A DNA stretch of 64,000 nucleotides from assembly GCF_963921235.1 (NCBI RefSeq), contig NC_086097.1, positions 15,500,001-15,564,000 on the forward strand. Direction: 5' to 3'. Position 1 is the stretch's first letter; each line of letters begins with the position of its first letter. Source of the DNA: Mobula hypostoma. Lineage: Eukaryota. This document shows positions 1 through 5,244 of the stretch, in pieces. Position numbers and translations under genes: made by a program. The notes under the pieces were generated by a model. It saw nothing but the letters and a program-made list of their open reading frames with translations. It ran no database searches and was not told the origin of the DNA.

Positions 1-44
1 TAAAGGCTCAAAGGTTCATTTATTATCAAAAGTATGTATCCGTA

Positions 45-616
45 GACAAGGGTGTGTTTTCTCCCCTGATTTGTTTAATGTGTACAGTGAAACAATATTA
101 CAAAAAAAAGAGACATCTTGGGAATCAAAGTTGGCGGTGAAAACATCAATAATTTCAGATATGCAGATGACATTGTGTTAATTGCAAGTACAGAGAAAGA
201 ACTACAAAACTTAATATAATTGTTGAACAAAGTGCAAAAATGGGTCTATCTATCAATTGCAAAAAGAAAGAATGTATGGTGATATCCAAAAAGAAGGAGA
301 ATCCTATCTGCAGGCTGAGAATAAATAGGGAAGACATAAAACAAGTACAGAACTTTTACTACTTAGGAAGCTGGGTGACATCAGATGGCAGGTGCGACTT
401 GGACATTAAAAGAAGAATAGGGATGGTAAAAGACACCTTTACAAGAATGAAGAGTATACTGACCAATACTAAACTAGGCATGACAACCTGCCTCAGAGTA
501 CTGAAATGTTACGTTTATCCAGTTGTTATATGGCTCAGAATGTTGGATAATATCTAGTAACATGAGGAAACGAATTGTAGCAGCAGAGATGTGGTTTTTG
601 AGGAGGATGCAAAGAA
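45..616 (+). mobile_element. RTE-clade LINE reverse transcriptase fragment (frameshifted)
   Basis: Translates RQGCVFSPDLFN...NNFRYADDIVLIA...GLSINCKKKECM...FYYLGS...DIKRRIGM...EMWFLRRMQRI, typical of an RTE RT. Ends at the TA where a Tigger element begins. Confidence 0.85.
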
Positions 617-618
617 TA

Positions 619-2238
619 CAGGTTTCCCCTGCCATCTGAAGGTAGAGCATCCTATGAAACGGTTCGTAAGCCGGAATGTAGTAAAGCGAAGAAGCAATTA
701 CCATTTATTTATATGGGAAAATTTTGTGAGCGTTCACAGACCCGAAAATAACTTACCAAATCATGCCAAATAACGCATAAAACCTAAAATAACAGTAACA
801 TATAATAAAAGCAGGAATGATATGATAAATACACAGCCTATATAAAGTAGAAATACTTTTCCACAATCATTGCCGGCACTGTTCTCCGTAGCGAAAATCT
901 CACGCAAGCGCTCTCGGCAGAAAATCTCATGCAAGCGCTGTTGGCAAAAACACTCTCTCCAGTAACCTTTCAGTTATGAAGCTGCCAAATCATACCAAAT
1001 AACACGTAAAAATACACAGCCTATATAAAGTAGAAATAATGTATGTACAGTGTAGTATCACTTGCCGGAATTGGGACAGCGCAGAGCACACTGATGATGG
1101 TATGTTAGACTGAGTCGTCGGAGTTTGGGTGGTGCAGTCACCCGATACCGATCCGCAAAGCATGCAGGGGTGCAGCGGTAGCCGGGAGGCACACAGCACA
1201 TCTTTAAGAAAAAAGCTGAAATAAACAAGCTAATTAATTAGGTGCCGCCCGGCACGTAAATGTCAGCCCAGATCAGAGGCAACGCAATCGGCAATCGCCT
1301 CTGATCTGTGCCGACATTTACGTGCCGGGCGGCACCTAATTAATTAGCATGTTTATTTTGGCTTTTTTCTTAAAGATGTGCTGTGTGTCTCCAGGCTGCT
1401 GCTGCATTCTCTGCGAATCGGTATCTGTCCGCGGCCTGGGGATTGGGGTGGTGGGACACTGAGGTGTCAATTCATCGTCTGTTTCCATTAGGGCAGGCAG
1501 CTCATCTTCTCCTATGACTGCCCGCCTTGATGTCGAAGGTTGAGGTTCGTCGTCTGCTGTGGCTGATGTGGAAGGCTTGCTTGACTGCTTAGCCTCGCGC
1601 ACTTTTCTATCATACAGTTCTTTGTAAGGACTCAAACCATCTCGCAAATATGCCCTAAAGCTACGTACCCTTTCAAAATTAAAGTCGTACTTTATCATCG
1701 CAGCGAAAATCTCATGTAGTTGTCTCACGTCCAGTTCTTGGATGACTTCACTTTTGCTACTGAATTCGGTTTCGATTGTTATCCTTTCCTCTTCCAATTG
1801 CATCAGCTCTTCATCTATCAGTTCTTGGTCATGGGATGCCAAAACCTCTTCAACATCATCTTCGTCAGTTTCCACAAGCCAAACTTACCTTGTCCTTCCT
1901 TCGTTCACCACGATGGAAACGCTTAATTATGTCTAGTTTTATGCTAAGTGTAACACCCTTACGAGCTCTTTTAGGCTTTTCCGATGCTTTAGAACTCACC
2001 TTGCTAACGGCTGCACACAGGAGCGTGTTTAAGCAATGCTGGCTAAAATGCAGTTCCAGATCCGGGGAGAGCGGCTGCTTGGGGCGCGCGCTGCTTTTTA
2101 TCGTGCACTGCTTTTCCCCGCGCACTGCCTTCTTCATAACAGTGAAAGCACCTTCTGTTAGCGAAAACGGAACTAATGTAGGTCTTTCGAAACAGTGAAG
2201 TTTCGTAAAGCGAACGTTCGAAAAGCAAGGGACACCTG
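619..2238 (-). mobile_element. Tigger/pogo DNA transposon, internally deleted
   Basis: TA on both flanks. Imperfect ~22-bp TIRs (caggtttcccctgccatctgaa / revcomp caggtgtcccttgcttttcgaa). Minus-strand remnants of a CENP-B-type N-terminus (KRARKGVTLSIKLDIIKRFHRGER) join directly to an acidic C-terminus (EDDVEEVLASHDQELIDEELMQLEEE). No DDE domain. Confidence 0.85.
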
Positions 2239-3477: not shown

Positions 3478-3715
3478 CATAGAAAACCTACAGCACCATA
3501 CAGGCTCTTCGGCCCACAAAGTTGTGCCGAACATGTCCCTAGTTTAGAAATTACTAGGCGTACCTATAGCCCTCTATTTTTCTAAGCTCCATGTACCTAT
3601 CCAAAAGACATCTTAAAAGACCCTATGGTATCTGCCTCCACCACCGTTCCTGGCAGCCCATTCCATGCACTCACCACTCTCTGAGTAAAAAACTTACCCC
3701 TGACATCTCCTCTGT
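3478..3715 (-). mobile_element. CR1 LINE 3' end inserted in a Penelope-like terminal fragment
   Basis: atagaagcatagaa tail and reverse-complement CR1 3' UTR. Flanked by pLTR-like pieces at ~3390-3465 and ~3720-3790. Confidence 0.6.
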
Positions 3716-4460
3716 ACCTCAGCCTGAAATGAGGACTGTTTACTCTTTTCCTGCCCTGTTGAGTTCCTCCGGCGTTTTGTGTGTTTGTTGCTTTTAAACT
3801 GCATGCATTTATTCTATGGGAAAACGTAGCATTATGTTTTTATTCAGTGAGGTTCCTCAGATATGTGAAGAGACACTTTAAAGAGGAAAATGTTGATAGG
3901 GACACCAGGGTAACTCCCAGCTTTTATTGAAGCATAATGATGAGATCTTGAAAGACCACCTGGGCATAAGGATGAGCTTGTGACTCATTTTCTTGCCTGA
4001 AAGAATTTCCCGCCTTCAGTGAAGCAGTGTTTCATTGCTGCTTTGAAGTATTTATGAGATTAGATACTTAAGACTTTAGGGGGTTTAAGTCCTCAAGTTT
4101 AGGATTTACCCAAGTTTAGCATACTTGAGGAATCTCAGTTACAAGAGAATCTCAGTTGCTTCTGATATATTCCCAAATTGCCATTTTCCCAGCAGATTTA
4201 GTATGTAGTATATGAGTACATGCTGTATTTGTGGCATACTCTGATCTCTCTGGTAGAGGAACCAGGCTGTAGTTTAAATTATTTCATATACAAAAGGGAG
4301 AAGAATGATTTGTACTTGTATTGTAGATTTTGTGGTGTTTGCTTATCCTGAAGTGTTTTATAGTCAATTACAGAATTTTAGTCACTTTTTGTAATATAGG
4401 GCATCAAACCAACCAAGTTATTCTCCACGTGTGTTGTAATCAACAGGTTATTAAGGATAT

Positions 4461-5021
4461 GATTGTTCGTCCATTGTTGACGTCGATGAGGACCTCGACA
4501 CCATTATGATGGTGTCGAGACTGGCGCGTCATTTGGATTTAAGTGAGGGAGAGTTGCGCAGAGTCAGCCTCACTCTCTCTTCCCAATTCCCATCTGGATC
4601 CAGTGGCATGACAGAGTCTAGACGGCTGGAGATGGGACGAGGCGCAGTGGATGACCAGGATGTCTTCTGTGTCGTCCTGCTCTACACGTTCCACGACACT
4701 TGCAGAGACCGCCTTCTTGACCGTTGGACCTTCCATGGGTCTCGTCCGCTCAATCCGCCGGAGTCTGTCTTCACATGCTGGGATAGACAACACCCTATCT
4801 CACCGAGGGTTTGAGACCCGTCGGCTACCCTCACCTGCTTTAGCCGGCTTGTTGAAGCTGTTACCCGGGGTGTGGCCGCTGTCGCATGCAAACAGCTACG
4901 GGGAGCCACAGGTGAGAGCTGAGTGCCAGGTGGGGACCAAAGGTGGACTAACCGCCCTGAAAAGGACACGACATGTTCCCCCACCAGAGGTGCTACCCCT
5001 CCCTGACACCCCATACACCCC
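4461..5021 (-). mobile_element. Non-autonomous, non-coding retroelement (probably RTE-dependent) with 12-bp TSD
   Basis: Direct repeat tattaaggatat at 4449-4460 and 5029-5040. GC- and CpG-rich body in AT-rich flanks. No recognisable protein. Perfect 11-bp hairpin at 4494-4519. Confidence 0.75.
4828..5021 (-). ncRNA. Putative HDV-like self-cleaving ribozyme
   Basis: Manual fold of the minus strand gives P1 GGGGUGU/ACACCCC, P2 CUCACCUG/CAGGUGAG, P3 GGC/GCC, L3 UCCCCGU, P1.1 CC/GG, a short P4 and J4/2 GGCUAA, in the nested double-pseudoknot order. Confidence 0.7.
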
Positions 5022-5244
5022 AAGGATATATTAAGGATATAAGAGCATGAGAAACAGTAAGATTATGCCTAACTGAGACCGCTCCACCACTCAGTAAATC
5101 GTGGCTGACCTGGCTTTGGTGATGTTTGAGGAATCAATGCTAGTTGGAACACAACAGATTATGCAGGCTCCTTGTAATTGATATCGGTTTATTATTGGAA
5201 CAATTGCCAAGGTCAGTGAAAAGCTTGTTTTGCATTTTGTTTGT

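Follow-up and report, generated by a model that had tools for sequence, protein, structure and literature searches.

What fixes the 5′ end of a short, abundant retroelement in the genome of Mobula hypostoma, and could its structured head be a self-cleaving RNA? The question is raised by an element on the minus strand of a 64,000-nt stretch of contig NC_086097.1 (positions 15,500,001 to 15,564,000; hereafter the window, in whose coordinates all window positions below are given), which a first-pass annotation had described as a ribozyme resembling that of hepatitis delta virus (HDV) at the 5′ end of a retroelement. We consider it probable that the first ~192 nt of the element are a genuine HDV-like ribozyme. 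Where element numbering is used, position 1 (G1) is the element's first base, at window position 5021, and numbers increase along the minus strand, so that C179 lies at 4843. Unless stated otherwise, features are on the minus strand.

The helices that had been listed were all located between 5021 and 4830, and they follow the nested double-pseudoknot order of HDV and CPEB3 that had been claimed for them: P1, P2, P3, L3, P3′, P1′, P1.1, P4, J4/2 and P2′. The 5′ strand of P1, GGGGUGU (5021–5015), opens with the element's first base, which immediately follows the predicted cut, and pairs with ACACCCC (4873–4867), giving the P1 of about 7 bp from G +1 that is typical of the class, with a 3′ strand that directly abuts P3′. 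P2 is formed by CUCACCUG (4916–4909, extendable to 4919) and CAGGUGAG (4837–4830) and P3 by GGC (4907–4905) and GCC (4876–4874); both P3 strands and P2′ are recovered alike by reading the sequence, by the descriptor given below and in the alignment. Within the L3 core, UCCCCGU (4904–4898), U4904 and G4899 correspond in position to U20 and G25 of HDV, and C4903 and C4902 can pair with GG at 4866–4865 to form P1.1. A P4 hairpin (4860–4845; CGGCUU-CGAC-AAGCCG in the majority of family copies) is followed by J4/2, GCUAAAG (4844–4838; family majority GCUAAAC), which places a candidate catalytic C at 4843, just before P2′, and an A three bases on, at 4840. The 5′ U of L3, the G five bases on and the two P1.1 C residues are present in each of the three DNA lineages that we compared, namely family A, to which the window copy belongs, the related family B and L061, a homolog from another organism.

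A descriptor that specifies only pairing (7 Watson-Crick pairs in P1, 8 in P2, 3 in P3, and P1.1 GG with CC at L3 positions 2–3) and spacing (P1′ directly after P3′, J1/2 of at most 120 nt, L3 of 7–40 nt, P2′ within 110 nt), and thus allows the L3 insertion as the first-pass annotation had advised, matches once on the two strands of the window, at this site, and not at all in 100 dinucleotide shuffles of both strands, which places the match far above chance. Further signatures go beyond what the descriptor demands: L3 starts U-CC and has G at its sixth position, the C of J4/2 is followed by U-A-A, and the base at +1 is G. The pair G25·U20 has a described role in L3 of HDV-type ribozymes (PMC3774820, PMC13635239), and C179 and A182 were compared with C57 and A60, whose geometry is described for a solved HDV-like ribozyme (PMC13635239). 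Across the HDV-like class as a whole, only five nucleotides are reported as conserved (PMC4870747). The window copy itself departs from the family majority at four sites (minus sense: U for C at 4863, A for G at 4859, A for G at 4853 and G for C at 4838), and the change at 4859 turns a G-C pair of P4 into A·C; it is a single dead insertion that has drifted from the majority in or beside the core.

The boundaries of the element were defined by its other copies. The own-genome assembly (3.48 Gb, 200 contigs) was searched with window positions 4700–5100, which yielded 2193 first-look candidates; the best 40 of these, which were scored, are 95–98% identical to the query, and all begin at query position 60–84, that is, at about 5021. 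In 30 fetched family-A loci the upstream flanks are unrelated in every case, similarity being lost within 5 nt of G1, and the shared sequence opens GGGGTGTATGGGGTGTCAGGG; the initial GGGG is intact in 25 loci, and carries a point change in its first two bases in three; two loci lack 3–5 bases. Downstream, similarity to the 29 other loci stops ~559 nt from G1, at about 4463, where the 3′ end of family-A copies is ...GATGGACGAAC with an (AAC)n or (AACC)n tail, beyond which the upstream flank recurs. The window copy, the only one in the window, accordingly spans 4463–5021. Near its 3′ end are a stem-loop with an 11-bp stem (4519–4494; z −3.89), which is present in family-A copies, and a second stem-loop with the tail ...GAUGGACGAAC(AA) (4493–4463), whose stem was drawn by eye and is only partly predicted by folding. 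Genome-wide exact-pattern counts give at least 704 family-A copies with an intact head. The predicted cleavage site before G1 thus coincides, to within 5 nt, with the 5′ boundary of the element, as had been proposed, in 30/30 family-A loci, and family B and L061 start alike.

Family-A copies are flanked by target-site duplications (TSDs) of 8–12 bp at varied, dispersed sites. In the window copy the longest flank match is the 12-bp ATATCCTTAATA, found at 5040–5029 and again at 4460–4449; seven extra bases, TATCCTT (5028–5022), separate its 5′ copy from G1, and an alternative 8-nt reading, ATATCCTT (5029–5022), abuts G1. As judged by eye, the TSD lies within 0–1 nt of G1 in six copies (L004, L009, L012, L014, L017 and L027), and 3–9 variable extra bases stand at the junction in nine (L001, L002, L003, L008, L011, L018, L023, L025 and L030). 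These extra bases vary among copies and frequently duplicate a portion of the target, which in L001, L002, L003, L008 and L023 suggests microhomology-guided joining of the second strand. Variable 5′ junctions of the same kind are described by Eickbush and colleagues for those R2 elements whose RNA is cut at the element's own 5′ end (PMC3774820). Of 60 aligned family-A copies, 42 have T immediately before G1.

The shared start, the length of ~559 nt, the tail and the TSDs together identify a short, non-coding retroelement dependent on a long interspersed nuclear element (LINE). With G1 as first base, TSDs and a LINE-type tail, it has the features of ribozyme-terminated elements that lack long terminal repeats (non-LTR elements). 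The earlier view of the host as a retroelement carrying the motif at its 5′ end is upheld, with the refinement that this is a non-autonomous element resembling a short interspersed nuclear element (SINE) and not an R2 or RTE LINE. An open reading frame of 65–86 amino acids in the window copy was rejected as coding: it is frame-shifted relative to other copies, and no LINE reading frame follows in truncated copies. The family-A majority contains a frame of ~90 codons that starts at about position 286 with an ATG in good context and stays open into the (AAC)n tail (...MDEQQQ); this frame is shifted in the window copy, is not conserved in family B and probably has no meaning. In L007, a tRNA-like SINE (...GGTGGCGCAGTGAC...GGTCCCGAGTTCGAATCC...) is inserted ~520 nt into the family-A copy.

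Relatives of family A extend the comparison. Contigs from four public sequencing runs, compared with the element, revealed a large subfamily with L3 UCCAAGU and a variant with a different J1/2, and a pattern built from the variant matched the genome 1972 times (control, 0). This family B shares the length, start and tail type of family A, has copies that are just 70–80% alike and is older than family A. In seven of 30 sampled B loci the similarity continues into both flanks, and these loci were provisionally set apart as family C. What they have in common 5′ of the element belongs to another repeat, H (4299 first-look candidates); of eight sampled H copies, seven are uninterrupted and one contains the B module. 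Family C is therefore a B copy, short of ~3 nt at its 5′ end, that was nested in H and then spread. These are the only copies extending 5′ of GGGGUGU, an arrangement that the first-pass annotation had named as a potential contradiction, and their nesting removes them as an argument against the 5′ boundary. Repeat H (L042:1578-1830 (−) and L092–L099) begins ATACAGTGGATTCCAGTTAATTGGGACA..., and its variant with the nested B copy has itself been amplified (7/30 B loci; 1/8 sampled H copies).

L061 was found in metagenome contigs with a 20-nt core word; it is ~76% identical to family A, and its first bases are again a G-run, preceded by an A+T-rich flank that is unrelated. A search for its own relatives in the M. 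hypostoma assembly found none, the best matches being family-A copies (75–77%), and scans of viral and genome contig collections with the core pattern gave 0 matches. About 120 nt upstream of its G1 lies a (CAACCA/CAACTA)n microsatellite (L061:285-330) that looks like the tails of this family and may mark where an upstream element ends. A further relative, X19, is a 253-nt RNA-seq contig from another organism that is ~88% identical and covers 4793–5022. It runs directly at 5022 into the letters GATCGGAAGAGCGTCG, which we take to be Illumina adapter; the passage straight into adapter places the fragment end at G1 and hints that an RNA 5′ end lies there. Contigs X17 (whose RNA origin is only a guess), X20 and X12 show the element and its subfamilies and cannot show RNA ends; in X20, unrelated flanks begin from 5018 and 5025.

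The pairing scheme is retained across these lineages. The majority sequences of families A and B are identical in P1, P1′, P2, P2′, P3, P3′, P1.1 and J4/2, and differ at L3 positions 4–5 (CC versus AA), in the linker after P1.1 (J1.1/4), in P4 and in J1/2. L3 reads UCCCCGU in family A, UCCUCGU in an A variant, UCCAAGU in family B and UCCUCGA in L061, the U, CC and G being invariant, and C179, U180 and A182 are constant in all 11 aligned sequences. Within P4, family A has G-C as pair five where family B has C-G, and U-A as pair two where B, X19 and L061 have U·G. In L061, the 5′ heptamer GGGGGGC faces ACCUCCC, so that U5-A is replaced by G5-C, a compensatory change, G4-C becomes G4·U, and U7-A becomes C·A. 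The 11-sequence alignment (the window copy, four family-A copies, five family-B copies and L061) was scored over 41 pairs, for a structure derived from one of the aligned sequences and with rows that are mostly neutrally decaying copies from only three to four independent lineages; 91.2% of cells pair, compared with 34–50% when the partners are slid by 1–3 columns. Five pairs show substitutions in both partners, where shuffles average 1.9 such pairs (five were attained in 2 of 500), and the covariation score is 0.138 versus 0.114 in shuffles (1/500).

The J1/2 domain, predicted at ~90–100 nt, proved to be ~98 nt long (5014–4917) and structured. In family A it folds as a rod-like hairpin with a minimum free energy (MFE) of −46.7 kcal/mol (z −3.28; equalled by 0 of 200 shuffles). 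A 10-bp base helix (5011–5002 with 4930–4921) closes it beside P1 and P2; in the alignment 90.9% of its cells are paired, and one U·G in A has become G·U in L061. The repeat of the P1 5′ strand at 5012–5006, read before as a tandem P1 strand, does exist, but it is the 5′ strand of this closing helix and not part of P1. Indeed, in L061 the second G-run, GGGGUGG, has diverged independently of P1 and, by alignment columns, still matches its own partner strand, with the closing helix in a somewhat different register in the MFE fold of the L061 J1/2. The base helix is comparable to P1.2, the J1/2 closing helix that is reported to make large HDV-like ribozymes faster, by as much as three orders of magnitude (PMC4908430).

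The hairpin noticed between L3 and P3′ (4896–4878) is also real, with the stem GCUGU/ACAGC (4896–4892 with 4882–4878) and the loop UUGCAUGCG, and its stem is kept in A, B and L061. Together with flanking single bases, the 5-bp hairpin makes up a 21-nt insert, owing to which L3 is 28 nt long instead of the short 7–8 nt closed directly by P3′ in the class. In the alignment 94.3% of its stem cells are paired, and in organism G the stem has one G·U. The loop region (4891–4883) contains the palindrome GCAUGC, kept in A, B and L061, and, overlapping it, UGCAUG; as pure speculation, it might serve loop-loop dimerisation or be bound by a (U)GCAUG-reading protein. An alternative pairing of AGCUGUU (4897–4891) with AACAGCU (4862–4856; the linker and the 5′ strand of P4) competes with both the hairpin and P4 in the MFE fold of the window copy; by eye, it is weaker in B and L061, and it may represent a misfold or a switch.

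Taken as a ribozyme, the head would act as follows. An element with no recognisable promoter of its own would be transcribed within longer host transcripts, and its RNA would fold into a nested double pseudoknot in which P1, P1.1 and P4 stack beside P2 and P3, with the long J1/2 hairpin clamping the outer ends of P1 and P2 and the extra 5-bp hairpin between L3 and P3′ tolerated and conserved. C179 and a bound metal ion would then cut the backbone just 5′ of G1. The 3′ product would begin at G1, and a LINE reverse transcriptase would recognise its 3′ stem-loops and (AAC)n tail and copy it into new sites; the proposed cut leaves G1 as the first base, which would explain why genomic copies begin exactly there.

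Several observations weigh against this interpretation. The ribozyme core is the best-conserved long segment of the element, by a margin that is not wide: between A and B, identity is 87% in the core and 73–81% elsewhere, and between A and L061 it is 82% and 67–77%. L061 is a single copy whose P2′ has a 1-nt bulge, and X19, with 20 of its 25 differences assigned to positions, may have a changed core. The extra hairpin is invariant rather than covarying, without any double change in the alignment, and the isolated P3-L3-hairpin segment folds no better than shuffles (z 0.08), its MFE favouring another pairing. A search of Rfam at gathering score returned no HDV-type family (models HDV, CPEB3, drz-Agam and HDV-F-prausnitzii), and at E≤10 the queries A, B and L061 gave only the chance matches c-di-GMP-II-GAG, SAM-II, C0299 and HOTTIP_3. 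The MFE of the whole region (201 nt) is likewise ordinary (z −0.68 against shuffles). These last two results weigh little, because such tools cannot represent the pseudoknot, the 98-nt J1/2 or the L3 insert; indeed, the Rfam models contain neither a pseudoknot, nor a J1/2 of 90–98 nt, nor an L3 insert. They are also what could be expected if the pairing pattern were a chance feature of a G+C-rich repeat, an explanation that we regard as next to negligible given the lack of any descriptor match in shuffled sequence and the maintenance of pairing, with compensatory changes, through ~24% divergence in L061. Moreover, the partner of G1 is C155 in each of the three DNA lineages, unlike in HDV and CPEB3, which have a G·U wobble at this position (PMC4836649).

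A further objection comes from subfamily A2, which shares diagnostic sites 426 and 519, accounts for 10 of the 60 sampled family-A copies and has been productive with an uncompensated A·C mismatch in P1 (G6 to A, with P1′ unchanged). Genome-wide exact-pattern counts are 559 for (G6,C150), 16 for (G6,U150), 125 for (A6,C150) and 4 for (A6,U150); U150 thus accompanies A6 in 3.1% and G6 in 2.8% of cases, which shows no enrichment, and compensation of A6 by U150 was rejected. Since A2 was amplified with P1′ unchanged, its source, mismatch included, still gave copies with correct 5′ ends. P1 mismatches do occur in apparently active R2 elements, yet they lower cleavage in vitro (PMC3774820). Such a history would also suit a structured but non-catalytic leader, whose HDV likeness would be partial or a relic and which might contain an RNA polymerase II promoter or initiator at G1, or a structure bound by the reverse transcriptase complex or used in translation. 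A fixed 5′ end suits a transcription start as well as a cut, and such a leader would fit the moderate conservation of the whole element rather than of the core alone, the G1-C pair in place of the wobble, and the 21-nt L3 insert, for which the literature search found no precedent in the class. It leaves unexplained, however, 20 bp in the exact HDV order together with the U-CC-G signature of L3 and C-N-A-A of J4/2, as well as a 5′ heptamer that in L061 covaries with a heptamer 140 nt downstream, and no promoter element was identified; we judge it unlikely, though not negligibly so. A head derived from tRNA, 5S or 7SL, with initiation by RNA polymerase III (pol III) fixing the 5′ end, would be the usual expectation for short, abundant, LINE-tailed elements, which are mostly pol III SINEs, and by eye a loose A-box-like TAGCACCTCTGG can be seen at about positions 27–38. 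ARAGORN, however, finds 0 tRNA genes, A, B and L061 have no match to tRNA, 5S or 7SL at E≤10, and neither B nor L061 retains the B-box-like GGTTAGTCCAC seen in family A; conservation across lineages is lacking for the box-like motifs in general. A TTTT run ends pol III transcripts, and family A has one at about positions 58–61. The element thus lacks the pol III-derived head with an internal promoter that defines canonical SINEs, and this origin seems very improbable. The ribozyme remains the reading that we prefer.

A more far-reaching proposal would make these elements a multi-species chordate superfamily of promoter-less, ribozyme-capped SINE-like elements and their heads a new structural subclass of the HDV fold, one in which L3 is the site of a three-way junction. 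The extra hairpin, with its conserved palindromic GCAUGC loop, would then be functional, and through RNA dimerisation or the binding of a protein it could link cleavage to the assembly of the retrotransposition complex. We put this forward only tentatively and hold it, taken as a whole, to be rather doubtful.

No autonomous partner LINE sharing the 3′ tail was found in own-genome searches, in each of which the best 40 matches were scored. A candidate 'second tail' in L016 was rejected as a partner: it is the tail of the SINE itself, interrupted by an insertion. Nor is the genome's abundant RTE-like LINE (13,556 first-look candidates) an obvious partner, because it ends in (GAT)n and not in (AAC)n. 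A degraded fragment of this RTE/BovB-like family, from the C-terminal part of the reverse transcriptase, occupies window positions 1–640 on the plus strand; in more intact copies the reading frame ends ...TGHGT and is followed by the (GAT)n tail. Another LINE family, marked by the motif FFTQRVV..WN.LP, is represented by C-terminal ends at window 3597–3839 (−) and at L010:571-1482 (−). One copy of it is inserted in a family-A element, and its look-alikes are chordate reverse transcriptase fragments.

HDV-like ribozymes are known to process 5′ ends in several LINE families and in a few of their short derivatives, mostly in insects, nematodes and protists. Our literature search, from which most subscription journals were outside, found no HDV-like ribozyme in a vertebrate SINE or other non-autonomous element, in a shark, or with a hairpin at L3. 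The present case appears to be an HDV-type head on a dispersed SINE-like family that numbers thousands of copies in its chordate host and has relatives in several other organisms. If this is true, such an element would need no promoter of its own, as any host transcript running through a copy could release a precise template for retrotransposition. Although the length of L3 is usually taken to be constant, the loop may accommodate a helix; descriptors with a fixed L3 length would then miss ribozymes of this form, and the site of the hairpin might serve as an engineering handle.

Among known systems, a comparable pairing of a LINE with a short non-autonomous partner, both headed by an HDV-like ribozyme, is described for L1Tc and NARTc of trypanosomatids (PMC3185411, PMC3383444). 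Their Pr77 differs in its length of 77 nt, against ~192 nt for the module described here, in doubling as an internal promoter, an activity that the present module is not known to have, and in its protist hosts. The R2 ribozyme (PMC3774820) offers the likeness of a 5′ end set by self-cleavage, here only predicted, with variable junctions; its J1/2 ranges from 23 to more than 700 nt and its P4 is variable, whereas L3, P3 and P1.1 are conserved, which is similar to the pattern seen here. Non-autonomous 'SIDE' elements, internally deleted derivatives of R2, also keep the ribozyme (PMC3414825). By contrast, R2 is site-specific in the 28S ribosomal DNA and co-transcribed with ribosomal RNA, whereas family-A copies are dispersed; R2 is without the L3-side hairpin, and no R2-type partner was found for family A. 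drz-Agam-2, of RTE-type LINEs (PMC4908430), compared by description rather than by sequence, has the double-pseudoknot core, the long J1/2 with a P1.2-type base helix and the position at a non-LTR 5′ end in common with the present element, which differs in its chordate host, its ~559-nt non-coding, SINE-like nature and the extra hairpin that follows L3. Finally, the HDV genomic and antigenomic ribozymes and CPEB3 (PMC4836649, PMC13635239) differ from the present head in its G1-C pair, its structured J1/2 of ~98 nt, the 21-nt insert before P3′ and its lack of an Rfam match. In the published descriptions they nevertheless agree with it in helix order, in a P1 of 7 bp that begins with G1, in a P3 of 3 bp, in an L3 of the form U-CC-N-N-G, in a P1.1 of two G:C pairs, and in a J4/2 C, catalytic in those ribozymes and a candidate here, that is followed by A residues.

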